Shown here piece by piece: positions 33,430 to 60,950 of a stretch of 64,000 nucleotides of DNA. The DNA is from an uncultured Gemmatimonadales bacterium. GTDB lineage: Bacteria; Gemmatimonadota; Gemmatimonadetes; Longimicrobiales; RSA9. Below the pieces are notes generated by a model. The model saw nothing but the letters and a program-made list of their open reading frames with translations. It searched no databases and was not told the DNA's origin. Every line of letters starts with the position of its first letter. Positions within the stretch are counted from its first letter, which is position 1. The stretch spans positions 96,001-160,000 of the forward strand of contig CAWCRS010000009.1 of the NCBI GenBank assembly GCA_963798085.1. Direction: 5' to 3'. Both the position numbers and the translations under genes were made by a program.

Positions 33430-33669
33430 GTTCCGGGCGACGATGGGTGGTCCGGCGGCAATTCCGCTGCGCCATCCTTGCCGGGGCGTCAGGTTCCGCG
33501 TGAAGCTGAAGCCGCATCGTCGACTGCGATGAACAAAGGCACCGCCAGCGTGTGCCGTCCGCCGGTGGCGCATCCCCCGCAAGCGGGGAGCGAAGCGTGC
33601 AGCGCCATCACTCGTAGGGGAAGGCCGGACACCCCGGGCGTCCATCGACAATCACCCTGGAGAACCCGC

Positions 33670-40998: not shown

Positions 40999-41005
40999 CG
41001 GATTC

Positions 41006-41317
41006 CTACCAGTGCTCGCGCAGCACGATCACCACGAGGATGACGGCGAGCGGGAAGGGTGCGGCCGCGAACAGCCAGAGTTTGCGCGGCTCGAACCTCA
41101 GGTGCATGTAGTACATCGCGACGAGCAGCGCCTTCCAGATGGCGAGCCCGACCAGGATGAGGATGAGAATGGTCTCGGGAAGTGCCGACAGGAACGCGAC
41201 ACCCAGTTCGGCCCCGGTCAGCACGCCCAGGATGACCCAGATCAGGTAGTAGTTGGGCGCCGCGTGTTTTGCCGGCTCCGCGGATGGCGAGCCATGATCC
41301 GACATGTTGGATGCCAT
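41006..41317 (-). CDS. ctaF: Cytochrome c oxidase subunit IV
   Basis: YYLIWVILGVLTGAE, KALLVAMYYMHLRFE. Confidence 0.88.
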   Translation of the reverse strand: MASNMSDHGSPSAEPAKHAAPNYYLIWVILGVLTGAELGVAFLSALPETILILILVGLAIWKALLVAMYYMHLRFEPRKLWLFAAAPFPLAVILVVIVLREHW

Positions 41318-41326
41318 GATCGCCTC

Positions 41327-41950
41327 CTAGATCAGGTAAACGATGGTGAACAGGATGATCCAGACCAGGTCCACGAAGTGCCAGTACAGTCCCATGATCT
41401 CGACACCGCCATAGCTGTTCTTCGTGTAGCCGCCTCGCCAGGCCTTGATGAGCGTGAACCAGAGGCAGAGCACGCCGATGGTCACGTGGGTTCCGTGGAA
41501 GCCGGTCATCGTGTAGAACGTGGCACCGTAGAGCGGTCCACCCAGCACGGTCTCGCCACCATGGCGGCCAACAGCGTGATAGAGCGACGCGACCGGGACG
41601 AAGCCTTCGTGCGCCAGCTTGTAGTACTCCACACCCTGAATGCCGAGGAACAGCATGCCGATCAGAGCTGTTGCCAGCAGGTATTTCTTCAGGCCGGCCT
41701 GGTTGCCCTGCTCGATTTCGGCGAACGCCTTCACCATGGTCACGCTGCTGCAGATCAGGATGAAGGTGTTGGCGGCGGTGAGCGCCACGTTCAGCACCTG
41801 GCCCGGCCGCGCGAACTGCTCGGGGTGCGCGAAGCGCAGAATGATGTACGAGCCGATCAGCGCCGTGAAGAACATCACCTCGGACAGCAGGAACACCCAC
41901 ATGCCCAGCTTCAGGTTGTACACACCGAAGCTGGAGTGTCCGCTCTCCAT
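41327..41950 (-). CDS. ctaE: Cytochrome c oxidase subunit III
   Basis: KLGMWVFLLSEVMFF, TGFHGTHV, GLYWHFVDLVW. Confidence 0.93.
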   Translation of the reverse strand: MESGHSSFGVYNLKLGMWVFLLSEVMFFTALIGSYIILRFAHPEQFARPGQVLNVALTAANTFILICSSVTMVKAFAEIEQGNQAGLKKYLLATALIGMLFLGIQGVEYYKLAHEGFVPVASLYHAVGRHGGETVLGGPLYGATFYTMTGFHGTHVTIGVLCLWFTLIKAWRGGYTKNSYGGVEIMGLYWHFVDLVWIILFTIVYLI

Positions 41951-42015
41951 TGTGGCCGCGGCTGCAGTGCGTCATTTCTTCGTGGCTCCTTTGCGTGAGT
42001 GCTGTGTCGCGTCCA

Positions 42016-43814
42016 CTAGTGGCCGCGTGGGGCACGGGCTGCCCCGTCGGCGGCTGCGTCTGCACAGGAAGTCGGCTTGTCCCGGGCGAGCTGTACTCGT
42101 ACGGGCCGCGATAGACCGTGGGCATCGCGTCGCCCCAGTTGCCGTGCGGCGGCGGCGAGGGCGTGGTCCACTCGAGCGAATTGGCTTCCCACGGATTCGT
42201 GCCCGCCTTCTTCCCGGCGAACAAGCTCCAGAAGAAGTTGAACACGAAGATGAACTGCGACAGCGAACAGCAGGAACGCGCTGATGGAAATGAACACGTT
42301 CGTGGCTGCATCGGCTTCAGGAAATGTGCGGATACTGCGTCGGATCGTACAGCCGCCGCATCATGCCCGCCGATGCCGAGCGAGTGCATCGGGAAGAACG
42401 TCAGGTTGAAGAAGATGAACGTGAGCCAGAAGTGGATCTTGCCCAGCGTGTCGTTCATCATGCGGCCGAACATTTTTGGGAACCAGTAACTGATCGCGCC
42501 GAAGATGCCGAACAGGCTGCCGCCGAAGAGCACGTAGTGGATGTGCGCGACGACGAAGTAGGTGTCGTGCAGTGGAATGTCGACCGGCGCTGCGGCCATG
42601 AAGATGCCGGACAGCCCGCCGATCATGAACAGCGCCGACGAAGCCGACAGCGCGTACAGCATGGGCGCGTGGAAGCGGATGTTGCCGCCCCACATCGTGC
42701 CCAGCCAGTTGAACATCTTGATGGCCGAGGGCACGGCAATCATCAGGGTGGTCACCATGAAGAGGCCGCCGAGCAGCGGGTTCATGCCGCTGACGAACAT
42801 GTGGTGGCCCCACACGATCCAGCCGATGAAGCCAATGCCGACGATGGCGCAGACCATCGGCGTGGTAGCCGAAGATCGGCTTGCGCGCGCCGTTGGCGAT
42901 GATGTCGGAGACGAAGCCCATGCGCGGGCAGGATCAGGATGTAGACCTCGGGATGGCCGAAGAACCAGAACAGGTGCTGCCAGAGCAGCGGCTGGCCGCC
43001 GCTGGCCGGCTTGAAGAAGCCGGTGCCGAGAGTCTGATCGAAGAACTGCAGGATCAGGCCGCCCGCGAGAACCGGCACGGCCGAGCAGCATGCAGCATCG
43101 ACGTGATGAACAGCGCCCACGTCGAGAGCGGCAGCCGGAACCAGGTCAGGCCCGGCGCGCGCATGTTGATCGAGCGTGGTGATGTAGTTCACCGAGCCCA
43201 TGAGCGACGAGAAGCCCAGAGGATCAGCGAGGCAGTTCCCACAGTCTGCTGCCCGAGGTGCACGCCGCTGTACTCGGGACTGACGCTGAGCGGCGCATAC
43301 GCCGGTCCAGCCCGGCATTGGCGGCACCGCCCACGCACGAACGAAGCTGGCCAGCATCAGCAGACCGGCCGGGCAAGGCCATCCAGAACGGACACCATGT
43401 TGAGCCGCGGGAACGCCATGTCGGGCGCGCCGATCTGCAGCGGGATCAGGAAATTCGCCCACACACCCGACAAGCAGCGGCATGATGGCGAAGAACACCA
43501 TGATCGTGCCGTGCATGGTGACCAGCGCATTGTAGAACTCCGGCAGCATCACGCCACTGGTCGACCATGGTCTCGGGGAACAGCTGGCGCCGGGCAGCGG
43601 ACGCGCGCGGATTGGACGGCCACGCCAGCTGCCACCGCATGGCCATGGCAAGCAGCCCGCCCACGAGCAGGAAGAACAGGCTCATGAACAGGAACTGGAT
43701 GCCGATGACCTTGTGATCGGTGGAGAAGATGTACTTGCGCAGGAACGGCATTTCTTCGTGCTCCCCGTGAGCGCCGTGGGGCCGGGACTCCTGCGCCATT
43801 GCGGCGGTGCTCAT
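42016..43814 (-). CDS. ctaD: Cytochrome c oxidase subunit I, A1 type; multiple frameshifts
   Basis: [64 protein letters not shown]. Confidence 0.93.
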
Positions 43815-44615
43815 GTTGTCGACTCCTCCGGTCTCTCGGTGCTCATGGCTGGTGGCTCGTCGTGGCCACCGCTGTGGGTGTAGCGGCTGGCGGGGGCGCG
43901 GCATTGCCTGCCGCGGCCAGGCGGGCGGCCTCGCTTCTCGGCGGCGGCCGCCGCCTGCTGCTGCGCGTTCCAGGACGCGAAATCGGCGGCCGAATGCACC
44001 GTCAACGCGCCCTTCATGCGGTAGTGACCCAGGCCGCACAGCTCGGCGCAGCCGATCGCGTAATCGCCGGTTTCCGTCGCCTGGAACCAGGCCTGGATGC
44101 GCATGCCCGGCACGGCATCCTGCTTCAGCCGGAAATTCGGCAGGAAGAAGGAATGGATCACGTCCTCGGACATGAGCGTGACCTGCACGGGCACACCCAC
44201 CGGCACGTGCAGCTGGTTGCGGCGCACGAAATCATCGGGCGTGCCCAGCTGCCCGTCCGCGCCCGGATACGTCACGTTCCACTCGAACTGCTTGGCAGTG
44301 ATGATCAGCTCGAGCCCGGGCGTGGGGAAATGCGCCGGATCCTTGATCCGCAGCCAGATGGGCCGGCTCAGGATGCCGATGTACACCATGATCAGCGCGG
44401 TGGCCGTGGTCCACAGGATTTCCATGCGGCTGTTCCCGTGCGTGTACTTCGCCCGCCGGCCGGGCCGCGCGCGGTACATGATCAGGAACGCGATCAGCAA
44501 CGCCTCGACGCCGAAGAACACGACCACCACGATCCAGTTGACCAGATGGAACAGGTGGTCAATGTCGGCGCCGAACGTCGAGACATTCGTGGGGAAAGTG
44601 CCAGAAGCGATCCAT
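43811..44615 (-). CDS. ctaC: Cytochrome c oxidase subunit II (CuA); both ends frameshifted
   Basis: HGNSRMEILWT, SEDVIHSF, CAELCGLGHYRM; no fused CxxCH domain seen. Confidence 0.92.
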
Positions 44616-45560: not shown

Positions 45561-47440
45561 TCATCCCTTGCGCCCGCCCTCGCGTTCCCGTCGCTGCGCG
45601 CGGCCCACGGCGAAAAGACCGAGGCCCGCGGTCAGCAAGGTGGCGAGGAGCGGCGTCGCATACAACGTCCTGGGCGCAGGTTGGCCCAGATACACGAAAT
45701 ACCAGGTGCTGAGCGAGCCCCTCGTGCCGTGCTCGCCATTGTCGCCGTCCCATGCGAAGAAGGCCACAGGAATGGGCTGGCCGGTGGCAAAGGTCAGCGA
45801 ATTCGTGGAATCCCCGGCCTGGAGCGGGCGCTTGAACACCACGCTCCACTGTCCCTGATCGAACTTCGACTGCGACGTGAGCTTGTTGCCGGCGCCCGGC
45901 AGCAGGTCAATGCGGCCCGGTCCCTTGCCCAGGTTCTCCGTGACCTGCCCGTTCATGGCCGTGCCACCCGCGGAACGGCTCTCCCAGCGCCAGAGGTACA
46001 CGGGCTCGCGCGTGTTGCCCATGAAGAAGTACGGCCGCTCCATGCCTGTGGGAATGCGCTGGGGGAACCAGAGTGCGAGCGCGTCCGGCGCAGGCGGCGC
46101 CATGGCCACGGCCCCTGCGGCAGCGGCGGCGGCCGGGCCCGCTGCGGCAGCCGAGGCGGCGGCGTCGCCTTCCTTCGGTTCCATGATCTCGGTCACGCGG
46201 TTGCGCCACTGCGACCAGATCGTGTCCGGGCTGTTCGAGCGATCGTCCCACTCGACACGGAGGGCGAGGTCGGTGCCGTTGTGGACGGCCTGCACCCAGA
46301 GCCCGGTGACGGCCGGCGAGAACCAGCGCGGCTTGACGATGACCTGGCCCACCAGCGGGATCCAGAAGCGCTCGGCCGCGTGCCATGCAGAATCATCAGG
46401 CGACGACGGGACCTCACCTTCGATCTTCTTCGCCTCGATCACTTCCTTCGGTTGCGGGGTGCCGGCGGGGGCGAGGCTGCGCACGTAGTAGGCAATGCCC
46501 CAGAGGTCCTCATCGGACACCACCTTGGCGTCGAGCGCGTCCGAGAAGGAAGGCATGGGCGTGCCGTCGAGGCCCGTGCGCAGGCGACGATAGATGTCCT
46601 CCACCGTGCCGCCGCCATTGAAGTACCAGGGCTGTGTCAGATCGGCGGGCCGGATGGGCCAGTTGTTGGCATCCTTCTGCGTGGGCGCGGACGGACCATC
46701 GCCGCGGCCCGCCTGGCCGTGGCACTTGAAGCACTGCAGCGTCTGATAGCCCTTGCGCCCTTTCTCGATCATGTCGGCGCTGCTGCCCGGCTGCTTGCTG
46801 AACTGCACGAGCTGCGGCTTGTCCGTCTGGAAGAAGTGCGAAAACGTCTTGATGTACGGCGACCAGGTTCTGCCGCTCCTGCGACGCTGAGCGCATCCTT
46901 CCAGCCGGGCATGGCCGTGCCCGGCATGCCGTTGTCGATGACGTGCAGGATGTCGTCATCGGTGGGCAGCGAGCCGGAGGCCGTGACGCGGATCTGGTAT
47001 TGCGCCTGCACGAAATTTCGGGGACGCGGCAACATGTAGTTGGAACCGGGCCCGTTGCCCGTGCCATCCACGCCATGGCAACCCGAGCACCATTTGTCGT
47101 ACGTCGCTTTGCCCGGGGCATCCTGGGCGGTGGCGCCAGAAACCAGGAGCGCAGTTCCTAACAGCATGGTAGACAGCGCGCGAGCCCCAGCAACGTTTCT
47201 CGGGCTGGGGCTGGGGCTCGGGCTGGCAATGACACGACGATTTGCGTTCGCGGCGTGATCCTCCGGCCGGCGCGACTCCGCGCGTGCGCAAACAGCGCCT
47301 GCGAACGCTGTCCGACCAACGGTGCGCTCAGACCGTTGCGCACTGGCTGAAGAGCCGCCCCCACGCGCGGCACTGCCGCAACGCATGTCCCAGCCCCAGC
47401 CCGAGCCCCAGCCCGAGAAACGCCTCTCAAGGTTGATCAC
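45561..47440 (-). CDS. Diheme c-type cytochrome fused to an EbdC/DOMON-like heme-binding domain; frameshifted
   Basis: CSGCH and CFKCH, GTAMP and GTPMP, RPYFFMG, WSVVFKRPL, VAFFAWDG, C-terminal TM. Start uncertain (GTG 47440 or near 47168). Confidence 0.85.
47194..47422. repeat. Inverted-repeat-bounded element at the 5' end of the cytochrome gene
   Basis: CGTTTCTCGGGCTGGGGCTGGGGCTCGGGCTGG ... CCCAGCCCCAGCCCGAGCCCCAGCCCGAGAAACG. Confidence 0.8.
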
Positions 47441-48243
47441 CTGGCGCCTCCCGCGGGCGCTGCTTCTTCCCACGTGCGCGGCGACCAGCCGGTCTGCTGG
47501 TAGAGGAAGATGATGACGGACCAGATCTCGTTTTCCTCAGGAAGTCTTCCCATGCGGGCATCGCGGAATTCCAGGGTGTGCCTTCGTGCGGCAGGCCGAC
47601 GCCGCCCTTGGCGATGCGCCAGAACACGAAGCTCTCGGTGAGCTGCGCGATGGTGCCGTTGTCCTGGAAGTTCGCCGGGGTGGGGCTGAAGCCGTGCGCG
47701 AAGTGACCCGTGCCGTCGAGATGCGTCGCCGTGGCAGGGCAGGCAATTGTGGTAGTAGATCTTCTTGCCGTCCTCGTAGTGCTGCTGCATGGCGGCGGCA
47801 TCGTTGCTGCGCAGCGGATTGGTCAGCCCGGCCAGCGTCATGGTCTTGCCGTGGAACGTGATCTGGATGCGGGCGGCGCCGGGTGGATCGAGCGCAGCGA
47901 AGGCGGCGCGGATACGGACGGGCGCACGCGACCGTACGTGATCCAGCCGACCAGCACCGGGATCAGCACCAGCAGCGCGGCGCGCCGGCTTGCGCTGTTC
48001 GGGGCGCACGAGCAGCGCGTGGATCGGCTCCTTGAACGTCGCGCCAGCGCTCTCGTCCGCGCTCACGTACAGCAGCATGCCCACGAATACGATCATGAGG
48101 TACTCGAACACGACGCTCGCGGGCGCGGGAGCGCTGTGCACGCCCAGCAGTGGCGGGATGTACGGGATCCCGAATTTGATGACGAGCCAGGCCAGCACCA
48201 GGACCATGACGGCCTGCCAGAACGGGTGCCGCAGCAGTTTCAT
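47437..48243 (-). CDS. Membrane-anchored monoheme c-type cytochrome; frameshifted
   Basis: Three N-terminal TMs, RSIHPAPP, CLPCH, WRIAKGG..LP.EGTPWNSAMPAW. Confidence 0.85.
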   Translation of the reverse strand: MKLLRHPFWQAVMVLVLAWLVIKFGIPYIPPLLGVHSAPAPASVVFEYLMIVFVGMLLYVSADESAGATFKEPIHALLVRPEQRKPARRAAGADPGAGRLDHVRSRAPVRIRAAFAALDPPGAARIQITFHGKTMTLAGLTNPLRSNDAAAMQQHYEDGKKIYYHNCLPCHGDASRRHGSLRARLQPHPGELPGQRHHRAAHRELRVLAHRQGRRRPAARRHTLEFRDARMGRLPEENEIWSVIIFLYQQTGWSPRTWEEAAPAGGAR

Positions 48244-48260
48244 GGCCCGAGCCTCCGCCT

Positions 48261-49064
48261 CTATTTCCTGCTCGCCAGGAACTGCACGAGCGCCTCCAGC
48301 TGCGTCGCATTGAACTGCTGGCCGAAGTTGGTGGGCATGATGCCCGCCACGGCCTCGAAGCCCTTCGTCTTGTCCGACTTCGGGTCCAGGATCTTGTGCC
48401 GGATCGCGTCCGCGTTCCGGCGCGATCCCACGTGATCGAAGTTGGGCGCGATGGTCTGCCCTTCGCTGCCCAGCTTGTGACAGGACAGGCACGTTTGCCG
48501 CCTTGATCAGCTCCATCGGATCCGTCGAGCCGCCCGCGAACGCGGCGCCCGCGGCCGCGGGACCGCCCGCCGCGGCACCCGCATCACCGCCCGCAGGCTG
48601 CGACTTCGCTACATCATCGCCGGTCACCGTGACCTCGCCGCCCTGCGACTCGAGGTACGCGATGAGCGACCAGATCTGCGGACCCGAGAGCGGCTTGCGC
48701 ATGTCCGGCATGATCGGCTGATAGCCCGGCACCACGAACGCCGCGGGCTCGGTCAGCGAATGGTACAGGTACGCCTTGCAGTCCATCGCCCGCCACACGC
48801 TTGCCGCAACGACGCCAATGGTGCCCGTGCCCGCCTCATCCGTGAGCAGGTTGGGTGCGCGCGTGCCCAGCCCATGACACGCCGTGCAGCCGCCCGCCCC
48901 TGGAAGAGCTGCTCGCCCGCAGACACCAGCTGCTCGGGCGTCACGGTACCCTCGAAGCTCAGTTCCTGCGGCACCTCCGACTGCACCTGAGGGATGGCGT
49001 TCGCCACCAGCGTATACAGTCCGAGCAGCAGTATGACGATCGCGAAGACCTTGAGATTGACCAT
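48261..49064 (-). CDS. Membrane-anchored diheme c-type cytochrome; frameshifted
   Basis: N-terminal TM, ANAIPQ; CTACH (near 48875-48888) and CLSCH (near 48476-48491) read directly from the DNA; IMP motif twice. Confidence 0.85.
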
Positions 49065-49206: not shown

Positions 49207-51017
49207 CTAGTCGCCGCCGCCGGCGCCAACGCGGCATCTCAGCGCCACCATGCGTCATGGCCGGCGTATCGCCGGCTTCTCGACCAGTCCGCCCAGCCAG
49301 AAGATGAAGGCGATGAGGCCGAGGAAGATCAGCACGCACGTGCTGATCATGGTGGCCGCGTAGCCGAGCGCCGGCGTCGCCGCCTACGGGCTCGTGTCAC
49401 GCATCACTTCGTAGACGTGCCAGTGCTGGCGGATGCCGCTGCGTGCGAAGCCCATGAGCCCCATGAGCCAGGTGAACGTGACGACGAGCACGAACAGCGC
49501 GTATTGCGAACGCGCCGGCATCTCGACCCCAGCGGATCTCGCCGCGCGACTGCGCGCCCTGCCCATCAGCACATCGATCACCGTCACCATCACGATCGTC
49601 GAGATGACCGCACCGACCTGGTAGACGCTGAAGCCGATGCGCACGATCGCGCTAGACGAAGTAGCCGTAGACGCCGTAGAAGACCACGATCAGCGGCGGC
49701 CAGCCCATGAGCGCGCCCTGGATCAATGCTGCCCGTCCTCGCCCATGCCACGACCGGCGACTTGTTGGCGCGGCGGTACATCAGGAAGCGACAGGAAGGT
49801 CGTCAGGATCATGAGGTTGACGGCGGTGTTCTTCGCGCTCATGACGCCGAGTGCGCCGAGGAACGGGTGGTGTGTGCCGCCCATCAGCGCCAGCTCCTCG
49901 CGGTTGGCGATCATCGTGTGCGGCGTGGCCCACACAATGACGCCGAGCACGAGGACGCAGCAGCATCCACTTCGTGTAGGGGACGAAGCGTTCGCCGCCG
50001 GGGATCCGGCCCAGGCCGAGCCACAGGTAGTAGTTCGCGGCCAGGAAGAGGATGCCGATGAGGAACGCCTGGATGATCCACAGCCAGCTCATGAACCCGC
50101 CCATCATCGTGATGCCCATGGACTGGTTGTAGGCGTAGATCTCGCGGCCCAGCCAGTAGCCGGCGAAGGGCAGGACGAGCAGTGCGCTGATGGCGATGAA
50201 GTTGCCGATGTAGCCCATCCAGTCGTAGTGCGCGCGCTCCTCGTCGGTCTTCGCATTGAGGAATCGGACGGCTGCGTAGCCCGGCGGCGATCGCGCCGCC
50301 GAACACGACGTTGGCGATAATGCGGTGGATGTTGATCGGCATCCACGTGGCGTTCGCAATGGCGCTCCACAGCTTGACCGCGCCCGGTGACGGGTCGGGC
50401 ACGGCCTCCGGCGGCGGGCTCATCATGTAGCTGAGCCAGCTGTCCGCAATGAACATCACCGTCGTGCCCCAGATATTCAGCAGAATGCCGAGGCACAGGT
50501 GTACGATCTTCTTTCCGCCCTTCTTGCAGCGGTCCCAGCCGTAGTAGTAGAGGTAGAGGGTGCCCGATTCGACGAAGAACAGGCCCACGTAGATCCACAT
50601 GGTCAGCGAGAAGACGGCTGTCATGTGGCTCCAGAACTTCGGATACAGCGTGGTCAGGAAGAAGAGCAGCACGGCGCCCCAGATGGCGGTGGCGCTGTAG
50701 GCGATCACCAGCAGGCGCACGAATTCCTTGGCCAGCTTGTCGTAGCGTGGCTTCCTTCGTGCCAGATGCCGATGCCCTCGACCACGACCGCGAACATGGG
50801 CACACCCAGCACGAACGCGGCGAACATGAGGTGCAGCTCGGCCGCGATCCGAGATGGCGTTGCGAGCGCCGATCACGGGGAACTCGCGATAATCGGGCGA
50901 AGCGGCCTGCGCGGCCTGTGCCGCCTGCTGCGCCAGCAGCGGATCGGCCAGGATCACGATCAGCAGCAGCACCGCGGCGCTGCCGAGGACCAGAGCGAAT
51001 GTGCGTCGATTGATCAT
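49207..51017 (-). CDS. Cytochrome bd-like oxidase subunit I (Nitrospira-type, no Q-loop); multiple frameshifts
   Basis: AELHLMFAAFVLG, YDKLAKEF, FFVESGTLYLYYYGWD, WMPINIHRIIAN, HYDWMGYIGNF, TPHT...HHP, GVMSAKN, MGFARSGIRQHWHVY. Confidence 0.85.
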
Positions 51018-51033
51018 GCGGGACCGGCTCCGT

Positions 51034-51267
51034 TCAGTGTCGCGTGCGCCGCCAGCGCACGGCGAAGAAAGCGGCCGCCAACACAAATCCGGTCGCAACC
51101 AGCGGCGCGTCGCGCCACATCATCCAGACCGCGCCATCAGCATCGAAGATGAAGAGAAACGACAGCGCGAAGCACACGAGCGCCAGCGCCAGCGAACCGT
51201 TGCCGCGGCCCACCCGTGACGTGGCCAACCCGTCGTCGCCTGCTCCATTCCGTGTGTGTGCCTGCAT
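51034..51267 (-). CDS. Small two-TM membrane protein
   Basis: 77 aa; AGGAG RBS; lies between the radical SAM and bd-like genes. Confidence 0.7.
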   Translation of the reverse strand: MQAHTRNGAGDDGLATSRVGRGNGSLALALVCFALSFLFIFDADGAVWMMWRDAPLVATGFVLAAAFFAVRWRRTRH

Positions 51268-51320: not shown

Positions 51321-52708
51321 TTACTGCCTGAGGAAGAACGGCATGCGCTTCGAGAAGTCCACCGGCATTTCGCGGCGCACCGCTTCCATCACTTCAGGCG
51401 TGACTGCGGTGTAGCCGCGGTCGCGCGCGAACTGCTCAATGCGGGCACTCACCACGCCCCGCACGAAGCCGGGCACGCGCTCCAGTCTGGCTTTCGCTTC
51501 CGCCGACCACGCCATGGACGGACTCGCCGGCGCCTCGCCGTACGTGACCGCACGCGCGGGCTGCACCAGCGCTGCCGTGCCGCTCGGCTGGTACGCGCAC
51601 GACGCGTCTTCCGCCATGAAGTCGCCGGTATCGGCATAGGCGCGCGCGCGGCAGCCGCCGCACACCAGGCGATACTCACAGCGCCCGCAACGACCCCCCG
51701 GCTCTTCGCCGCGCAGCCGCGCGAACACGGGCGACCCGTGCCACACATCAGCGAACGATTGCGCGCGCAGATCCCCGGCGACCACGGGCATGTAGGGACA
51801 CGGCGTGAGCTTGCCTTCGGGCGTGATGCGGCAGTAGTGCACGCCGCACGGGCAGCGCGTGCCGTAGTTGAGCAGCGGCGATTCCGCGTCGCTCTCGTAC
51901 GCGTGGCGCATCAGCTGCGGCTGGCACTTCGAGCGCACCAGCATGCGGCCGCGATACACGCGTTCGAGCTGCGCCAGCTCACGCAGCACCGCTTCGTTTT
52001 CTTCCGGCTCGAGTCCGTGCATGGCTTCGCCACGACCGGTCGCGACCAGGAAGTAGACGTTGAACGAGACCGCGCCGCGCTCCGCCGCCCACGCGGCCAG
52101 GGCGCCGATCTCATGGCGGTTCCCGCGTGTGAGCGAGGTCTGCAGCACGAAGTCGAGCTGCTCTTCCGCGAGCCGGTCGATGGCAGCAAGGTGTCGCGCA
52201 GCGCGCCGCCGCCGTGGCGGAAGCGATCGTGGTAGCGCTCGTCCAGCGAATCAATGCTGACGGCCACACCTGTGACCCCTGCCTGCCGGAGCGAACGGAT
52301 GCGCTCGCTTGTGAGGCGAGTCCCGTTCGTGCCCACCACCACGGTGGCGCATTGCCTGCTCGCGTGCGCCGCAATGGTCTCGAGATCGTCGCGCAGCAGC
52401 GGCTCGCCGCCCGAAAGGATGAAGAGCGGCGCGGGTGTGAGCGCCAGGATTTCGTCCGCAATGCGCAGGCACTCGCGGGTCTGCAGTTCGCCATCCGTGG
52501 CGTGCCATGAGCCTGCCGCAATGTAGCAGTGCGCGCAGGCGAGGTTGCAGCGTCTGGTGAGGTTCCAGGCGACGACGTGCGGCAGGAATTCCGTCGGCTC
52601 GCCGGTGGTCTGCAAGGCCGGCGCGTCGCGTGTCGCCGTGGCGGACGTGCCGAAGCCGAGGCGGGCGTCCGCACTCGCGGCGGGCAGCACGGGCAAGCCC
52701 GGCTTCAT
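51321..52708 (-). CDS. Radical SAM/SPASM enzyme (NirJ/AhbD-like) with C-terminal PCP_red-like domain; one frameshift near 52190
   Basis: WNLTRRCNLACAHCY, SGGEP, CPCG..YCRITPEG...PCPY, CGRCEY...CGGCRARA; tail WSAEAKARLERVPGFVR. Confidence 0.9.
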
Positions 52709-54942
52709 GCCTGATGCTCCATTGCGCTGCGCATGCCGGGTGCGTCTGCGAATTGCGTCTCTTCGCTCAACGCGCATCGCCTCCCTGCGTGCTCATGAAC
52801 TGCTCGATGGCGGCTTTCGCATCGCGCAGGCGATGCGGTCTTGAAATCGACCGGGCAGGCGCTCGCCTTCTCCGCGACATCGCGGATCGGACAACGCGTC
52901 ACACCCGCCGCCTTCGCTTCCTCGATGAAGCGGCGCATCTCCGGAGTGAGGCCATCCACACCCTCCGCCGCGGCGCGCAGCTGCTTCGTCTGCAGCTCGC
53001 GGAACATCACGAGCATGGTGTCCATGTCGAATGTGTCGGCCTCGATCATGGCCTGCTTGTTCTCGTCCATCACGTGCGTGGTGACGCGCCAGAAGCTGTG
53101 CTCGCGCGCGAATTTCTCGACCGTATTGCGTGCCAGCGGCCGCGCGATGAGCGGTACCAGCTGCAGTCGCTCGAACGCTTCCCGCGTCCACACGACGGGG
53201 TCCGTGGCATTGCGCTCGCGCGTCTGCACGTGACCCGTGTACGGACACTTCACGGTGATCATGGGCGTCGCTGGCAGGGCGTCGTCGTCCAGACCTTCGA
53301 CCACGGTGCGCGTCATGGCCTGCTGCGCCTTCACTTCCGCGAGCGCCAGCTCCTCCGCCGTGCCAATGCCCATGATCAGCTGCATGTGTGTGGGCAGCAG
53401 CTTGCGGATCGCCTCATCGAGGCGCTCGTTGGTGACCATGGGCAGTGCCGCAGGTCCCGCGGCGCTCGCACCATCGGCCTTGTCGTGGGCGCCGCCGGCG
53501 AAGCGCCGTTGCCGTTCAACTGCGCACCGTTGCCGTTGCCGTTCTCGTGCACCGCGTTCGCCGAAGCGTTGTTGCCGCTCGTGCCGTTCGCGCGGCCGGC
53601 CGCCTCACCGGCGTAGGTGCCGTTCGCGCCGGCGCCGTAGTTGTCGAGCACGAACTCCTCGACCGCCTTGCGCGCAATACCCAGCGCGAAGGGCGGCACG
53701 CGCAGGATGCGCACTTCCGCTTCCGGCGCCCATTCGAGACCGGTCTCGCCGTCTTCCTCGATCCAGGGAATCTCGTCGGGGCGCACATCGGTGGTGCCGA
53801 TCAACAGCACGTTAGTGTCCGTCAGGCGGCACAGGTTCTCCGCCTGCGAGCCGATGTCCGTGCCCTCGATGCGGTGGCCGCCGTGGCGGGCCAGAATGAG
53901 CAGCGACGGCTGCACTTCCTCGACCCACTGCAGGATGCACTGGAACGGCTTGCCGATGAGGATCTGCGTCTTGAGCGGCACGGCGGGATGGCGCTCGTGC
54001 ATCACTTCGGCGCGCTTGAGATTCGCCTGGCAGAGACTGCAGCAGGCCCTTGTCGATGATGTTGTTGTGCAGCTCTTCCTGCTCCTCGAACTTGAACACC
54101 TTCGAGGCCTGCACGGAGAGCACATCCTTGATGTTGCCGAACACGGCGTGGTGGTACTCGACATCGAACGCGGAGCAGGCATAGAGCGTGGCGTCGTACT
54201 GCTCGGCCATCTCCAGCGCCACGCGCATGGCCTTGTAGGCGTAGGACGAACCGTCGATGCAGACCATCCAGCTTGCCGCCGCGCAGCGGCCGGTCGTTGC
54301 GCACGACCAGCACGTCCTTCTCCACATTGCGCAGCACGCGCGCGGTGACGCCGCCCATCTGCGACAGTGGCTGGCGGCCGATGCCGTGCCGCCAATGCAG
54401 AGCAGGTCGTACGCGCGGCCGCTCGCAGCCGGCCAGCTTCTCGTCCTGCTCTTCGTCTTCCGCGATGAGGCGGCCGTTCTCGCCGATCTTCACATCGCTG
54501 CGCACGCTTCGCGCCGCCATCGTACTTGTCCGCGATGTTGGGATCGAAGCCGATCAGGCTGGGCAGCCGGCCCTCGCCCGCGGTTCACTTCGCGGATGAT
54601 CTCCTCGTAGTTGATGCCCTCGAGGAGCTGCCGCGTCATGGGCACACCCGCCGCCTCGCACTTCTTCGACGCCTGGTCAGGAACGAGTCGGAGATGAGCT
54701 GCAGTCCCTTCTCGATCAGCTTGTCGTGGATCTTGCGCTGCTTCCGGATCTCGTCCGGCGTCTGGAAACGCGCGGGCAGCCCCGTCTCCAGCTGGCGGAA
54801 GCGGATGTCGTGCAGGCGGGCAGCGTATACGTGATTGGCGGTGATGCGGCCACCGGTGCGCGGTGCACAGCTCGATGGCGCGGTCGATGGCCAGCAGCGA
54901 CTCGGTCGAATTGTCGACCGGTACAATGACTTCACGATACAT
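52705..54942 (-). CDS. Tandem universal-stress-protein domains fused to two PCP_red-like domains; multiple frameshifts
   Basis: IVPVDNS, CIDGSS, RHG.H......IGSQAENL; EWAPEAEVRILRVPPF and WTREAFERLQLVPLIAR; ATGA overlap with the radical SAM gene. Confidence 0.82.
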
Positions 54943-55253
54943 GACGCCTCGCGCTCGGAGTCAACGAAAGCTCGCCCCGAAAAACGCTGCACGGGCATAC
55001 ACACCACCCGCGTGGCGGCGCGGTCAACTCAACGCGCCGTCCGAGCGCTCCTCGAAGCGTCTATCCCGACAGTTGCGACGTGAACGAACCTCAGATTCCC
55101 GAACTTCCATATCGGTACCAGCGCCGCAGCGCCGGCCGGATTCACTCGAGCGCCTGACTCGCCCCCGTTTGTGCGGTTGGCGAGGCCGATTCGTGCCGGG
55201 CGTCAGAACGTCGTGCTGATGTCGGGAAAAACCCGGCGGCGAAGTCGGGGGTG

Positions 55254-55283
55254 AGAATACCGGGCCGCTTCCGCGAGTGTCAA
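55254..55283 (-). promoter_or_regulatory. Sigma70-like promoter upstream of the USP-to-oxidase operon
   Basis: Minus strand TTGACA (55283-55278), 18 bp spacer, TATTCT (55259-55254). Confidence 0.65.
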
Positions 55284-55327
55284 GGCCACGCGCACGGTGT
55301 TTTCAGGGCGAAAAACGACATTGCGCG

Positions 55328-56056
55328 CTACCGTCCATCGGCGCGGGCAAGGCTGCGCTGCAGGCGGGGCGCAAGCAGAGCGGTGAGTGTGATTGCCAGC
55401 AGGATCCAGGCGACGAGTGCTCGTCCGTGCACCGGCCACGTTCCGGCCTGCGCGCGGAGTGCCTCGTGCAGCGCGCGGAACGGTGCGGCCGCCTGAACGC
55501 GCGCACCCATCGAGTGCGTGACGGGTGTGCGGAAGACGCCCGAAGCGTGCAGCAGCAGCAGTGCCGCCACCGCCGCGAACAACGCGCCCTCGCCCACGGA
55601 CCTGGCCAGCGCGGCGATCCACAGCCCGAGCAGGTTGCTGATGAGCAGCGATCCCAGCAGCACAGCGGGCAGGCCGATCCAGGCGATGCCGGATGCGCGC
55701 GCGGCGACCAGGATCAGCGCGCTGCCGGGAAGCAGCTGGACGAAGTCGACTGCGGCGCCCGCGAACGCCCGGCCCAGCAGCACGCCCGCCGGCGAGAGCG
55801 GCGTGAGTACGAGTCGTCGCACCAGACCGCGCTCCGCATCGCGCAATGCCGGGATGGCGGCGCCGAACGTGCCGAACAGCGTGAACAGCACCGCGTAGAC
55901 CGCGGACGCGTGCACCAGCGGCGCGCCGCCCAGCGCGAGCGCCGCAACCAGCACGGAAGGCACGAAGATGTTGAGCGCGAACAGCCGGCGCCGCCGTGCA
56001 CTGCGCTGCCATTCGACGCGCCAGACCAGCGGCAGCGACCGAACGCGTGAACTCAT
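55328..56056 (-). CDS. ABC-2 type transporter permease
   Basis: RDAERGLVRRLVLTP, SGVF; about six TM segments. Confidence 0.85.
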   Translation of the reverse strand: MSSRVRSLPLVWRVEWQRSARRRRLFALNIFVPSVLVAALALGGAPLVHASAVYAVLFTLFGTFGAAIPALRDAERGLVRRLVLTPLSPAGVLLGRAFAGAAVDFVQLLPGSALILVAARASGIAWIGLPAVLLGSLLISNLLGLWIAALARSVGEGALFAAVAALLLLHASGVFRTPVTHSMGARVQAAAPFRALHEALRAQAGTWPVHGRALVAWILLAITLTALLAPRLQRSLARADGR

Positions 56057-57013
56057 GCGTGCCCGTTTGCTGCTGGCTTCGCGATTGCGTCGTCGGTCCC
56101 GCTGCTCAGCTCTTCGCCGGTGAGGCGGCGGAACACATCGGCCAGCCCGGGCTCGCGCACGCGCACGGACAGGATACGCGCACCCGAGCGCACGAGCGCG
56201 GCGCAGATGTCGGGGAGCACGTCGGCGCCGCGCGCACTCGCGAACACGAGCCCGGATTCGCCCGGCGATGCACGCACGCCAGCGGGCAGATCCGCGGGTG
56301 GCGGAACGGGTGATGTCCAGCTCCACATCGATGCGCGTCTCGCCTGCGACGGAGCGCAGCAGCGCCTGCGCAGGCGAATCCGCGACCTTGCGACCGCGAT
56401 GCAGGAACACAATGCGCGTGGCGAGCGCGGCCGCGGCCGCATCGTTCGTGGCCAGCACCACGGCCGCGCCAGCCTGTGTCCGAGATTGCAGTTCCGCCGT
56501 CAGCGCGAGCAGTGCAGCCGGGTCCAGCCCGATGGTCGGCTCGTCCAGGAGCAGCAGCGCGGGTGCATGCGCCATGGCTTCCACGAGCGCGAGCTTGCGG
56601 CGCATGCCGAACGAGTACTCGCCCGCCGCCACACCGGCATCCGCGGCCAGGCCGAACGCCGCGAGCAGCGCATCGACCGCGCGCGGGCCGGCACCGTTGG
56701 CACGAGCGAAAAAGACGGCGTTCTCGCGGCCGCTCAGCTCGTCGAAGTGGGCCGCCTCATCGGGCGCGTAGCCGAAACGACGCAGAGCCGGAGCGGCATC
56801 GTCGCCTGCAATCCGGTGCCGCGCACCACGCGACGGCGCCAGGTCACCGGCGAGGATGCGCAGCAGCGTGCTCTTGCCGGAACCGTTGGGTCCGAGCAGC
56901 GCCAGCGTTTCGCCCGCGTGCACGGTGAGGTCAATGTCGTGGAGCGCGTCGCGGCCGGAGGCAAAACGGAAGCTCGCGCGCGTGAGAGAGACGAGCGGGG
57001 AAGCCTGCGTCAC
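56053..57013 (-). CDS. ABC transporter ATP-binding protein; frameshift near 56300
   Basis: GPNGSGKS, YSFGMRRK, LLLDEPTIGLD, C-terminal EPGLADVFRRLTG. Confidence 0.9.
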
Positions 57014-57052
57014 GGGTCCCGGCCGCCGGCCGCCTCGCCCGCCTGCACGGCG

Positions 57053-57583
57053 TCACATCCCTTCCAGGCCCAGCTCGGTGCGCGCGCGATCCATGACCTC
57101 GGGCGAGATCACGGCGATGCCGTGCTCTTTCGCGTAGTCCGCGTAGATGCGCTTCACCATGCCGCGCACGAAGCCGGGCACCTTCGCGAGTCGTTCCTGC
57201 GCAGCACCATCCCACGTGACGGACAGGGCAGGCGACGCCACGGTTTCCGTTGCCGGCGCCGCTGCGGGCATGGCCGCGGCCGCGGCAGCATGCGGCGCCA
57301 TCCCGCCCACTAACAGCTCGTGAGGCGACGACTCCGTGAACACATCGCTGCGCGCGTCCGCGAGCGTGCTGCGCGTCATTTCCATGGGCTGCTCGGGCAC
57401 GGCGCGCCCGCCAATGCGCACGCCCAGGCTGCTCACCAGCTGCGTTTCCATGGGATTGGTGAGCATGGCGATCTCGTGGCCGCAGCGTGGACACGCGAAG
57501 ACGGCGGCCAGTGTGCCATCACCCGGCACCTGGCGCTCCGCGAAGGCCATCACTTCGTCGCAACCAATGCAGAGGAATTTCAT
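57053..57583 (-). CDS. Zinc-ribbon plus PCP_red-like domain protein
   Basis: MKFLCIGC...CPRC...MLTNPMETQLV; tail WDGAAQERLAKVPGFVRGMVK. Confidence 0.85.
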   Translation of the reverse strand: MKFLCIGCDEVMAFAERQVPGDGTLAAVFACPRCGHEIAMLTNPMETQLVSSLGVRIGGRAVPEQPMEMTRSTLADARSDVFTESSPHELLVGGMAPHAAAAAAMPAAAPATETVASPALSVTWDGAAQERLAKVPGFVRGMVKRIYADYAKEHGIAVISPEVMDRARTELGLEGM

Positions 57584-58476
57584 GCGGCGTTCCTGCCGCC
57601 GTTCTCGCGCTCGACGCGATCCGCGAGACGGGCGAAGGCGTGGGCCGCGGGCGAGCCGGGCGCCTGCAGCACGAAAGGTTGACCGCGATCCGTCGCCTGA
57701 CCCAGCGCCGGCTCGAAGGGCACATCGGCCCACACCTCGAGTCCCGTCTCTGCGGCCAGCGCGCGCGCGCCATCCGCATCGAACAGCACGCGCGTCTCGC
57801 CGGTGGAGTCGACGTACGCAACCATGTTGGCGACAATGCCGACCGGCGAGATGTTCGCATCGCGCAGCAGGCGAGCGGACTTGGACACGACGAAGCGCGC
57901 GATCTCGGCGGGCGTCGTGACCAGCAGCGTCTGCTGCGGCTGCGGCAGCAGATCGAGCAGCCGCGCAATGCGATCCGTGCCGGGCGGCACATCGAGCAGC
58001 AGATAATCCAGCTCACCCCACACGACATCGGAGAGGAATTCGCGCAGCACGCCCGTCTCCGCGACGCCTCGCCAGATGAAGCCGTCGCCCGTGGGCGCGC
58101 GCCAGCGCAGCGGCGCGTCGTCCTCCTGCAGCAGGTCCATCGACATCACGCGCACACCGCCCGTATTCACGGCCGGCTGCACGCCCTCCTCGTCATCGCG
58201 CAGCTGTGCGCCGGCCACCCCCAGCATGCGTCCCAGCGATGGGCCGTTGAGGTCGGCATCCAGCGCACCCACAAGCGCACCGCGACTGGCGAGCGCCGTG
58301 GCCAGGTTCGCGGTGATGGCGCTCTTGCCCACGCCGCCCTTGCCGCTGAGCACGGGAATGATGGCGCGCACGCCTTCCAAACGGCGTGTCAGGCGGGCGC
58401 GCTGATCCAGCACCTGCTCGAGAATCTGCGAGCCGGTCTCGTGCGCAACTTCGTGGTAGGTACGGATCTTTCTCAT
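57580..58476 (-). CDS. Mrp/ApbC/NBP35-family P-loop NTPase
   Basis: SGKGGVGKS, DADLNGPS, WGELDYLLLDVPPGT, VANM. Confidence 0.9.
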   Translation of the reverse strand: MRKIRTYHEVAHETGSQILEQVLDQRARLTRRLEGVRAIIPVLSGKGGVGKSAITANLATALASRGALVGALDADLNGPSLGRMLGVAGAQLRDDEEGVQPAVNTGGVRVMSMDLLQEDDAPLRWRAPTGDGFIWRGVAETGVLREFLSDVVWGELDYLLLDVPPGTDRIARLLDLLPQPQQTLLVTTPAEIARFVVSKSARLLRDANISPVGIVANMVAYVDSTGETRVLFDADGARALAAETGLEVWADVPFEPALGQATDRGQPFVLQAPGSPAAHAFARLADRVERENGGRNAA

Positions 58477-58736
58477 GGCACCAGCTGTGCGCCGCTCTCG
58501 TCGAACAGCGTCAACGCGGAAACCGGACAGGAGCGACACGATTCGAGCAACCGCTCGCGCTCGATGGTGGCATTGCCATCGCAGAAGACGACGACGCCTT
58601 CCACGCCCATGCGGAACGTCTCCGGCGCCAGGTCGACGCAGGTCTCGAACGCAACGCAGAGGCTGCGGTCAATGCGCACGAGCAGTCCGCCGATGCTGCG
58701 TTCCTCGAAATGCTCCACCGTCGCCTGGTCCGTCAA
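58473..58736 (-). CDS. Single-cluster ferredoxin (3Fe-4S-like)
   Basis: IDRSLCVAFETCVDLAPETF...SCPVSAL. Confidence 0.85.
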   Translation of the reverse strand: MTDQATVEHFEERSIGGLLVRIDRSLCVAFETCVDLAPETFRMGVEGVVVFCDGNATIERERLLESCRSCPVSALTLFDESGAQLVP

Positions 58737-58764: not shown

Positions 58765-59073
58765 TCAGGTGCGCGAGCCGGGCTCCTCGAAGGGGAACGG
58801 CAATTCCGACTGGCGTGGGCGAGCGAGGGGCGGCACGCGCGGCTTCTCCGGACGTCGCGCCGGACCCTGCCAGCCGCAGTGCACGCAGAAGCGCCACTCC
58901 GCCCAGGGAAGCACCCAGCGCAGCCAGCGCTTGCGCTGCGGGAAGGTCGAACCGAAGCAGGCCGGGCACTCGACTACCGGCCGCAACAGCAGTGCTGCGC
59001 CCAGCGCGAGCAGCAACCCGCGCAGCAGCACGAGGCCGAGAAGCACGAGAACGGCGAGTTCGGAGGGGTCCAC
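58765..59073 (-). CDS. Small membrane-anchored zinc-ribbon protein
   Basis: N-terminal TM, CPAC and CVHCGW; GTG start after GAGG. Confidence 0.7.
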   Translation of the reverse strand: MDPSELAVLVLLGLVLLRGLLLALGAALLLRPVVECPACFGSTFPQRKRWLRWVLPWAEWRFCVHCGWQGPARRPEKPRVPPLARPRQSELPFPFEEPGSRT

Positions 59074-59246
59074 ATTCCACCTCGACGGCCACCGCACACG
59101 GTCGCGCGCGTGTGAGCGCGACCTTCAACTCGCGTACACCTTGCCGACGCGCTGCGTTCGGCGCGCATACGCACCGCACGGAACAACGGGCAAGGAGCGG
59201 ACCAGCACCCCTGGACCGACTCCCACGTTCCCGTGGCAGAGCTCCA

Positions 59247-59543
59247 CTAGTGATGCGCTGCCCTCATGATGCGCACGCCAACGATGCGGAACGCGATCTT
59301 CGCGAGCAGCGGCAGCAGCAGGACGGTCAGCGCGCAGGCGAAGATGACCGCGCCAATGGGCGGCACTACGGAGTTGAGTCCCAGGCGCAGGAGGTACCAG
59401 ACCACGAGGTACAGCACCAGCGTACCCGCCAGGCCGAGCAGATGACGCCCGCCGCCACCACCTTCGATCTGGATCGGGAACCCACCCAGGTACAGTGCGG
59501 CCACGCTCCAGAACAGCGCGAGCGGTGCGAGCCAGGCGACCAC
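59247..59543 (-). CDS. Small three-TM membrane protein
   Basis: GTG start after GGAGG; appears fused to hemL in the ORF track only because of the hemL frameshift. Confidence 0.7.
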   Translation of the reverse strand: MVAWLAPLALFWSVAALYLGGFPIQIEGGGGGRHLLGLAGTLVLYLVVWYLLRLGLNSVVPPIGAVIFACALTVLLLPLLAKIAFRIVGVRIMRAAHH

Positions 59544-59664
59544 GTTGACCTCCGTCAATGCGTCGGGTTGCGTTTGGTGTCGGGAAACGGCCCGCCGGAC
59601 ATGCCGCGGGCCGCGCGGCGAGGATCGTACGCGCTCGGCGCGCGCGTGACAAGCGGCGTGCGGG

Positions 59665-60950
59665 CTAGCGGGCCCGCACCATGGCTTCGCGGGCCGCAAT
59701 GCGGAACCGCTCCAGCTCGGCATCGCCGTGCGCAACCGACACGAACGCCGACTCGAAGGGCGATGGTGCCAGGTAATGCCGCCCTCGAGCATGGCGCGGA
59801 AGAAGCGCGTGAAGCGCTCCCGGTCGCATGCGGCCGCGCCCTCCCAGTCCAGCACCGGCTGCGACGAAAAGAAGAAGCCGAACATGGAGCCGATCGCGGA
59901 TACCACGATCGGCACACCGGCGTCGTTGGCCGCGGCCTCGAGCGCCTGCGCGGTGTTGCGCGCCGTGTCCTCGAGCGTGGGCCAGACGCCGGCCTTGTCC
60001 AGCGCCTCGAGCGTGGCCAGTCCCGCGTGCATCGTGACCGGATTGCCGGAGAGCGTGCCTGCCTGGTAGACGGGGCCGGCGGGTGCGACGCGCTCCATGA
60101 TCTCGCGACGCCCGCCGAACGCACCCACCGGCAGGCCGCCGCCGATCACCTTGCCCAGCGTGGTGAGGTCCGGGGTCACGCCATACCGCGCCTGGGCGCC
60201 GCCCGGCGCGACGCGGAAGCCGGTCATCACCTCATCGAAAACCAGCAGTGCGCCATGCTCGGTGGTAATGCGACGCAGCTCCTGCAGGAACGTGGGCCGG
60301 GGCAGCACCAGACCCATGTTGCCCGCGACCGGCTCGACCAGCACGGCCGCGATCTGACCGGGATTCGCCTCGCACAACGCACGCACGGAGTCCGCATTGT
60401 TGTAGCGCGCCACGAGCGTGTCCGCGACCGTGGCCGCGGGTACACCCGGCGAGTCCGGCAGTCCCAGCGTCGCCACGCCCGAACCTGCCTGCACCAGCAG
60501 CATGTCCGCGTGCCCGTGATAACAGCCTGCAAACTTGATGAGCTTCGTGCGACCGGTGAACGCGCGCGCCACGCGGATCGTGCTCATGACCGCCTCGGTG
60601 CCCGAGCTGACGAAGCGCATGCGCTCGAGACTGGGCATACGCGACTGGATCTTCTCGGCGAGTTCGATCTCCGCTGTGGTGGGCGCGCCGAAGCTGGTGC
60701 CGCGTCTGGCTGCGTCGGCAATCGCGCGCAGGACGGCAATGTGCGCGTGACCCAGAACGAGCGGGCCCCAGGACAGGACGTAGTCGACGAAGCGGTTCCC
60801 GTCCGCGTCGATCACATACGCGCCTTCGCCCCGCTGAATGAACAGCGGGTCGCCACCGACCGAACGGAACGCGCGAACCGGCGAGTTGACGCCGCCCGGA
60901 AACAGCGCGAGCGCCTTCTGGAAGAGGCGGGCAGAGGTCTCGGTCTTCAT
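59665..60950 (-). CDS. hemL: Glutamate-1-semialdehyde 2,1-aminomutase; frameshift near 59770
   Basis: PGGVNSPVRAF, SSGTEA, FDEVMTGFR, LGKVIGGGLPVG, YQAGTLSGNP; C-terminus LAPSPFESAF in a second frame. Confidence 0.95.

Follow-up and report, generated by a model that had tools for sequence, protein, structure and literature searches.

The window analysed here is a stretch of 64,000 nucleotides from an uncultured Gemmatimonadales bacterium (assembly GCA_963798085.1, contig CAWCRS010000009.1, positions 96,001 to 160,000), and the subject of this work is a run of minus-strand genes within it in which one small domain, PCP_red (PF08369), recurs on a radical SAM enzyme, a tandem universal stress protein (USP) and a zinc-ribbon protein. 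Read along the minus strand, the run begins with HemL, a small Cys-bearing membrane protein, a ferredoxin, an Mrp-like ATPase, the zinc-ribbon-PCP protein and an ABC-2 pair. It continues with the USP-USP-PCP-PCP protein, the radical SAM/SPASM-PCP enzyme, a small membrane open reading frame (ORF), a bd-like oxidase subunit and two cytochromes c, and ends with a cytochrome c/EB_dh protein, a carboxypeptidase-regulatory-like protein, CoxB and CoxA (Table 1). The helper genes, as we call the PCP_red carriers and their companions, lie directly upstream of the bd-like oxidase module, which is of the TO_1 type. The order from USP to CoxB (USP, radical SAM, oxidase, three cytochromes) was kept in all 13 PCP-positive relatives fetched, and upstream of it Mrp was present in 11 of them and the zinc-ribbon gene in 12; where either is missing, the contig ends. 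Three further genomes of the host class have the same gene set. The ABC-2 pair is found in some relatives only (3 of 6 loci inspected).

The host assembly is ridden with frameshifts. Ungapped matches to an intact orthologue placed about nine frame changes in the USP gene and one in the radical SAM gene, and HemE is likewise broken up. As a result, the two USP copies of PCP_red lie in different ORFs; judging from intact relatives, both probably belong to one protein of about 700 amino acids. Owing to the frameshifts, protein-level analysis was done on intact relatives. Pseudogenes were ruled out, since the housekeeping genes HemE and HemB and the oxidase are equally fragmented while the relatives are intact.

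Table 1. Features of the helper and oxidase gene run. Positions are those of the window, except for the last row, where they refer to the loci named.
Feature	Position	Strand	Evidence
PCP_red copy 1, C-terminal domain of radical SAM enzyme	51375..51509	-	PF08369 61-65 bits
PCP_red copy 2, second copy in USP protein	53056..53190	-	PF08369 37.5-40.3 bits
PCP_red copy 3, first USP copy, split by an insertion and crossed by a frameshift	53392..53732	-	PF08369 18.8 bits, model positions 1-28
PCP_red copy 4, C-terminal domain of zinc-ribbon protein	57080..57214	-	PF08369 50-53 bits
Radical SAM/SPASM enzyme, AhbD/NirJ2-like, C-terminal PCP_red, one frameshift near 52188	51321..52708	-	PF04055, PF13186
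Tandem USP-USP protein, His-bearing helical insertions, two PCP_red, three Cys-Pro, frameshifted	52705..54942	-	PF00582; 706-aa intact orthologue
Three Cys-Pro motifs of the USP tail (Cys codons ~53247, 52893, 52857)	52852..53247	-	sequence
Zinc-ribbon (CxxC...CxxC)-PCP_red protein, 176 aa, overlaps Mrp stop codon	57053..57583	-	Cys conservation and PF08369
Mrp/ApbC-like P-loop ATPase, distinct subfamily, without C-terminal CxxC	57580..58476	-	PF10609 223 bits
Cytochrome bd-like (OR-N type) oxidase subunit, frameshifted, likely client	49260..51020	-	PF01654 N-terminal match
Two membrane cytochromes c and cytochrome c/EB_dh haem-b protein (TO_1/alt_NxrC module)	45561..49064	-	PF13442, PF09459
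ABC-2 exporter ATPase and permease	55328..57013	-	PF00005, PF01061
Single-cluster ferredoxin, adjoins cluster in most relatives	58473..58736	-	PF13370
HemL, glutamate-1-semialdehyde aminomutase; ORF end extends through probable frameshift	59247..60950	-	TIGR00713 560 bits, above cut-off
Stand-alone PCP_red proteins	L186 5811-6095; L187 12587-12886; L197 2422-2640		

The four motifs from which the sequence-only reading had proposed a reused PCP_red-like domain are all present where it placed them, all on the minus strand, and the identity of the domain was borne out by profile, mutual similarity and fold. Three of the four copies scored above the Pfam gathering cut-off for PF08369 of 32.5 bits in a scan of the window (61, 50.3 and 37.5 bits). 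The first USP copy stayed below it (18.8 bits, E 0.0016, match from 53732), because an Asn/Gly/Ala-rich insertion of about 50 amino acids sets its third helix apart. The AlphaFold model of an intact orthologue places the helices of this copy at residues 405-411, 416-433 and 490-500, around a stretch with a predicted confidence (pLDDT) below 50, and in distant orthologues the copy is uninterrupted. Pairwise alignments among the four segments scored above all 2000 shuffles in 6 of 6 cases; together with the Pfam scores this rules out a chance or low-complexity match. DNA identity between the copies was only 44-61%, and the copies are therefore considered old, a recent duplication being ruled out. 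An alignment-free fold of a zinc-ribbon orthologue (mean pLDDT 62; 78-95 across the PCP_red domain) gave the three-helix fold and matched 2KRU with probability 1.00, a root mean square deviation (rmsd) of 1.4 Å and E 0.0024. It also matched 2L09 and chain D of 2YNM, the ChlL-bound DPOR structure in which PCP_red is resolved, the match extending over 48 columns with rmsd 1.5 Å.

The copies share both sequence family and three-helix fold with BchB/ChlB of the protochlorophyllide reductase DPOR (2KRU, 2L09, 2YNM chain D), and also the position as C-terminal appendage of an Fe-S enzyme, here the radical SAM protein. The DPOR carrier is a nitrogenase-like subunit, whereas here the domain sits on USP, zinc-ribbon and stand-alone proteins, in one to six tandem copies, and the setting is respiration instead of photosynthesis. 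No Oxidored_nitro match was obtained among the 22 window ORFs scanned, which places the cluster outside DPOR and COR. A Pfam search of the whole genome returned no PF08369 matches besides the three strong copies of this cluster, which rules out a remnant of a photosynthesis cluster.

The USP protein is predicted to have a tandem USP fold (model pLDDT 84), matching Rv2623 and TTHA0350. It has the tandem fold (target-normalised TM scores of 0.72-0.82) and the ATP motif in common with the tandem ATP-binding proteins Rv2623, TTHA0350 and UspE, but is only 14-18% identical to them, and differs by a helical insertion with conserved His in each domain and by a PCP_red tail with Cys-Pro or rubredoxin-like inserts. 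The motif G-x2-G-x9-G-(S/T) marks ATP-binding USPs. Among 57 aligned homologues, most of them 32-61% identical to the first sequence, its three glycines are kept in 57, 57 and 57 sequences in domain 1 and in 53, 57 and 57 in domain 2, i.e., both domains have the ATP-binding motif. Six histidines are kept in 56-57 of the same 57 distant homologues. The number of PCP_red copies varies from one to six in 55 of 62 USP homologues, and the remaining seven, some of which may be fragments, have none. Such PCP-less USPs adjoin oxidase-module genes in three of nine Nitrospirota loci fetched, where the radical SAM partner keeps its own PCP_red; the radical SAM copy is kept wherever that gene is complete.

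None of the 121 close homologues aligned lacks any of the three Cys-Pro cysteines of the USP tail. Among distant homologues a lone Cys is followed by Pro at 19 of 65 positions in PCP-bearing tails and at 3 of 213 in the USP core; tested against proline frequency, this gives a binomial p of 5e-10, a value overstated by kinship. The accessible text of PMC11442138 describes Cys-Pro as the classic haem regulatory motif and GCPWHD as the haem-binding site of Irr. Several of the tail sites read GxCPxxH, resembling the latter, and the Cys-Pro sites lie in a flexible region; haem binding by these cysteines is a prediction. In three loci, a stand-alone protein of about 75 amino acids is encoded between the USP and radical SAM genes; it consists of a single PCP_red and ends in KKCPF or KCPL. 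Rubredoxin-like and HypA-like inserts occur in some USP homologues, and two homologues appear to be fused to a PNPOx-like N-terminal domain (Pfam match in P0148, similar sequence in P0137). Complex prediction for the radical SAM enzyme and residues 1-436 of the USP protein, i.e., its core and first PCP_red, gave a score of 0.00, which speaks neither for nor against binding. A PVDF motif is common to the radical SAM C-terminus (MPVDFSK, 51340-51365, minus strand) and the USP tail (CPVDFK, 52840-52860, minus strand), and is conserved in the host phylum.

The oxidase downstream was assigned to the OR-N family, TO_1 type, by its CydA-like N-terminal helices with haem ligands, accompanied by two cytochromes c and a haem-b subunit. 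Its first-helix His, channel Glu and later His align with those of solved CydA chains, and an orthologue of the window protein is 49-50% identical to bd-like proteins of Nitrospira. As far as the accessible portions of the sources go, OR-N is a family of cytochrome bd to which the module belongs (bioRxiv 2021.01.16.426971), and its composition matches the TO_1 module of Manganitrophus (bioRxiv 2021.11.15.468770) and the bd-like_3/alt_NxrC_2 cluster of Nitrospira moscoviensis (PMC6606698). The arrangement of bd-like subunit, two cytochromes c and periplasmic haem-b protein is the same as in Nitrospira and Manganitrophus, whereas the host here is a member of Gemmatimonadota and the module forms one gene run with the helpers and a canonical A-type haem-copper oxidase. 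According to the same accessible text of PMC6606698, the bd-like oxidase has been proposed as the terminal oxidase of Nitrospira, where its genes rank among the most strongly transcribed; its oxygen affinity is not yet known (PMC12342949). A second, more Nitrospira-like bd-like module (51-53% identity) is present in two genomes of the host phylum (L176, L177), and the 20 kb fetched around it contain no PCP_red gene.

The sequence-only reading had expected the helper genes to co-occur with bd-like oxidases, and this held in each sample taken. Among 41 relatives, PCP_red and the oxidase were found in the same 19 genomes and neither in 22, four of the latter having a CydA match of only 23-27%. 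In the host phylum the oxidase was present in 59 of 201 genomes, every one of which also has PCP_red. PCP_red alone was found in nine more, five of which were inspected: two contained the present cluster cut at a contig end, two a protein of about 540 amino acids ending in PCP_red, which we take to be BchB, and one was ambiguous. In 301 Pseudomonadota genomes the oxidase was found in 12, all with the USP, which was matched in 16; of the four extra matches, two were weak paralogues without PCP_red and two lay at contig ends. In 121 Nitrospirota genomes both were present in 36, only the USP in two and only the oxidase in four (E ≤ 1e-80). The four do carry a USP of the family, divergent in three and fragmentary in one, which brings the count to 40 of 40. 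The Pseudomonadota and Nitrospirota samples each include their centre genome, itself picked as a carrier. The USP/PCP_red genes thus track the bd-like oxidase across three phyla.

A wider scan drew on 15 of the 64 parts of the genome collection and yielded 589 USP loci, of which the best 80, mostly from Nitrospirota, were kept. The radical SAM gene followed the USP gene in 72 of these 80, and seven of the eight misses were at contig ends. Adjacency of the USP gene to TO_1 genes recurs in Rhodocyclales, in Thiobacillaceae and in some Nitrospirota. Two Nitrospira genomes had 12 PCP_red matches each, distributed over the USP, the enzyme, a separate Mrp/zinc-ribbon-PCP pair, a four-copy protein and a two-copy protein; the last of these lies just upstream of bd-like_4 in the Nitrospira genome inspected. 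Two flanking regions may be mentioned here. In a Nitrospira locus (L097, 6693-14165) the USP/radical SAM pair is flanked by a presumably UbiE-like methyltransferase, an Slr0320-like B12 radical SAM gene and a CopD-like membrane gene, which hints at a quinone link. Downstream of the pair in a Rhodocyclales locus (L053, 17339-21380) are di-haem peroxidase-like genes, a Rieske subunit and an AioA-like large subunit, an arrangement that we assume to be of the iodate reductase (Idr) type.

The radical SAM enzyme was compared with known families through three intact orthologues. All had AhbD and NirJ2 as best NCBIfam matches, with 272, 311 and 272 bits for AhbD (TIGR04545) and 271-320 bits for NirJ2 (TIGR04055), in both cases against a cut-off of 500; for one of them the two scores were 272 and 271. 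NirJ (TIGR04051) gave 154-179 bits against 515. PF04055 and PF13186 were above cut-off, and the CxxxCxxC and SPASM cysteines are invariant in all 14 aligned orthologues. No further match to the enzyme was found in the host genome at E ≤ 1e-8. AhbD and NirJ modify tetrapyrrole side chains (PMC7242693, accessible text). The enzyme shares with AhbD, NirJ2 and NirJ the radical SAM and SPASM build, whereas it scores below their cut-offs, carries PCP_red, is linked to an oxidase operon and occurs in genomes in which no AhbA/B was found. It is likely that the enzyme works like AhbD/NirJ2 without being a member of either family. The link to tetrapyrroles drawn by the sequence-only reading is accordingly likely, judged from these best matches, the conserved USP histidines and the Cys-Pro enrichment.

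We propose that the helper set is a haem-maturation kit, modifying and delivering haem for the Nitrospira-type bd-like oxidase, and regard this proposal as evenly poised between right and wrong. It builds on the domain identity, the gene order, the co-occurrence, the conserved histidines, the ATP motifs and the Cys-Pro sites. The AhbD/NirJ2 matches of the enzyme, the two PNPOx-like fusions and the hem genes close by likewise speak for it. In this scheme a side chain of a haem-type tetrapyrrole would be altered by the radical SAM enzyme, whose PCP_red would cap the product or pass it on. The His-rich tandem USP would ligate the haem via its histidines, stage it on the Cys-Pro sites and release it to the oxidase upon ATP turnover. 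PCP_red would then be a small lid or tether, with one constant copy on the enzyme, comparable to that of BchB, which also acts on tetrapyrroles; the extra copies on the USP (0-6) and the optional Cys-Pro or rubredoxin-like inserts may provide avidity or transient haem sites. A bolder form of the proposal, which we consider possible though doubtful, is that OR-N oxidases use an undescribed haem, made by the dedicated radical SAM enzyme and loaded by an ATP-driven, His-ligating USP chaperone, with PCP_red and Cys-Pro tails as a modular hand-off unit.

Several points weigh against this proposal. We infer the substrate, the product, haem binding and hand-over alike. The enzyme lies far under both family cut-offs, and many peptide-modifying SPASM families also match it. 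Cys-Pro was found in only 15 of 52 distant PCP-bearing homologues, where the sequences are related and the null is crude. The bd-like gene was seen in only 3 of the best 80 USP loci, and in Nitrospira the USP/radical SAM pair does not lie within 10 kb of the oxidase and sits behind a B12 radical SAM gene and a methyltransferase, presumably UbiE-like. The co-occurrence counts overstate independence because the genomes are kin. The accessible portions of the DPOR reviews and the cryo-EM paper give no role for PCP_red in DPOR, and those of bioRxiv 2021.01.16.426971 describe OR-N oxidases with the ordinary haem ligands kept, from which it follows that a special haem is not required.

Among the rival explanations, the one that survives best dispenses with a new cofactor: a divergent AhbD would replace the peroxide-dependent ChdC and supply plain haem b at low oxygen, with the USP buffering or delivering it. 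AhbD is the top or second NCBIfam match, and HemE, ferrochelatase and a ChdC-like gene, but no HemF, were found in the host, two relatives and one Nitrospira, which points to the coprohaem route. With HemE, ferrochelatase and the ChdC-like gene present in four of five genomes (host and relatives), routine haem b is already covered. HemL adjoins the helper cluster, and ferrochelatase, HemE, the ChdC-like gene, HemB and HemA are clustered 15-22 kb past the window end (contig 175546-182345). AhbA/B (PF17805) was found in none of the five genomes, the control being matched in 3 of 14, and the AhbD scores of 272-311 bits fall well short of 500. One Rhodocyclales carrier has HemF, which suggests that its haem is made via protoporphyrin, a route that does not pass through coprohaem. 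Moreover, a general source of haem b is not expected to follow one oxidase family so tightly, and we judge this explanation unlikely. As a separate observation, HemA and HemB divergently adjoin the ferredoxin gene in relatives G031 and G025.

A second rival would have the SPASM enzyme cross-link or otherwise modify the oxidase or a partner protein; a non-haem metal, be it Cu, Zn, Fe or Fe-S, would be handled by the His-rich USP together with Mrp and the zinc ribbon. The full SPASM cysteine set and the many matching peptide-maturase families are consistent with it, as are the rubredoxin-like and HypA-like inserts, the CopD-like gene after the pair in Nitrospira, and the position of the Nitrospira Mrp pair behind genes that we take to be Rrf2-like and sulfite-reductase-like. 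The tetrapyrrole families, however, score 272-320 bits with the enzyme, versus at most 192 for GeoRSP, mycofactocin and PqqE, and both the Cys-Pro enrichment and the nearby hem genes point away from protein or metal-centre maturation, which we hold to be quite improbable.

The sequence-only reading had gone further and seen in PCP_red a shared tag that assembles the radical SAM, USP and zinc-ribbon proteins around the Mrp ATPase, in the manner of BchB with BchL. This part found no support in that form. The Mrp-like ATPase is a P-loop protein (PF10609 223 bits, cut-off 27) that stays under the ApbC and MrpORP cut-offs; a second, generic Mrp is encoded in the host genome. The C-terminal CxxC of Mrp/ApbC carriers bridges an Fe-S cluster. 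It is present in 15 of 18 aligned orthologues and missing in the window Mrp and two relatives. With Mrp/ApbC/Nbp35 carriers the protein shares the family and the GKGGVGKS P-loop, as well as the CxxC in those 15 orthologues, but it differs by an N-terminal helix of its own and a fixed zinc-ribbon-PCP neighbour, besides the loss of CxxC here and its low ApbC and MrpORP scores. The four cysteines of the zinc-ribbon protein are invariant in 16 of 16 aligned sequences, and an atlas search with this domain returned only its own family, with scores below 0.9. Two observations would suit a docking tag: Mrp neighbours the zinc-ribbon-PCP gene in the host phylum, as it does in both Nitrospira genomes checked, and the domain is resolved in ChlL-bound DPOR (2YNM). 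Yet the zinc-ribbon domain was matched in only 4 of 20 genomes, and in none of 15 USP-positive Pseudomonadota or one Nitrospinia genome (several of these incomplete); one such Pseudomonadota genome had only a generic Mrp. Neither Mrp nor zinc-ribbon gene was found in any of the best 80 USP loci, nor Mrp in 16 further ones, and in two Nitrospira genomes the Mrp/zinc-ribbon pair is far from the USP/radical SAM pair. With PCP-less USPs besides (beside the oxidase in three loci; 7 of 62 proteins), and with the CxxC loss, a four-protein machine around Mrp is lineage-specific at best, and the docking tag is very unlikely. The fixed core consists of the USP and the radical SAM-PCP enzyme, and Mrp and the zinc-ribbon protein are an optional pair. 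Within the haem-maturation kit, PCP_red would accordingly not be an Mrp docking tag, and Mrp, zinc-ribbon protein and ferredoxin would be an optional arm, probably loading or reducing the Fe-S clusters of the enzyme.

Regulation, with the USP as an ATP, haem or redox sensor switching the oxidase or the radical SAM enzyme, is hardly to be credited: both ATP motifs are intact, one Rhodocyclales locus has a Crp/Fnr-type gene next after the USP/radical SAM pair and Cys-Pro is typical of transient regulatory haem binding (PMC11442138, accessible text), but the near-obligate radical SAM partner is left unexplained, and transcription of the probable USP orthologue of Nitrospira moscoviensis, NITMOv2_0498, which was identified by size and annotation only, is steady and high. 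The supplement of PMC6606698 lists it as a 2106-base 'UspA (Modular protein)' at rank 152, with 9.3x median transcription.

The remaining neighbours are as follows. Genes CoxB, CoxA and CoxC of a canonical A-type haem-copper oxidase follow the bd-like module in the same direction (window 40986-44600, minus strand; relative locus L025, 2094-5266), CoxB being present in 13 of 13 relatives, and the two oxidases may share an electron feed. Service of the helpers to this A-type oxidase was rejected, as its ligand motifs are canonical in the relative and the common neighbour in other phyla is the bd-like module. A SURF1-family cytochrome oxidase biogenesis gene (32623-33651, minus strand) lies about 7 kb downstream of the CoxA region. 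Two small membrane ORFs flank the helper genes (58765-59097 and 51034-51267, both minus strand), one of them with CxxC pairs, and have no useful family match. A conserved 133-amino-acid membrane protein without Pfam or NCBIfam match is encoded in the cluster of most relatives (L025, 15354-15752) and was not found in the window.

The terms 'universal stress' and 'radical SAM' are absent from the four main texts on OR-N, Nitrospirota and Nitrospina that were searched, including PMC6606698, PMC12342949 and bioRxiv 2021.11.15.468770. A literature search, with subscription papers and bioRxiv supplements (notably that of Murali et al. on the OR-N operon) outside its scope, found no publication describing the helper gene set. 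The system is undescribed but of a known kind, namely oxidase cofactor-maturation genes, with unusual parts. The set tracks its oxidase over three phyla and so indicates which genes should be co-expressed when the enzyme is reconstituted in a foreign host; the haem of the bd-like oxidase becomes directly testable in this way. In the present genome the helpers lie in one region with the oxidase module and the hem genes, and an intact relative would serve as a compact test cassette; the stand-alone PCP_red proteins of about 75 amino acids with KKCPF or KCPL offer a minimal object for haem-binding tests. If the proposal is true, PCP_red gains a role outside photosynthesis and the USP family one in cofactor handling, and if the oxidase does use a new haem, the helper set would supply the genes hitherto lacking for a reconstitution of what is presumed to be the terminal oxidase of Nitrospira.

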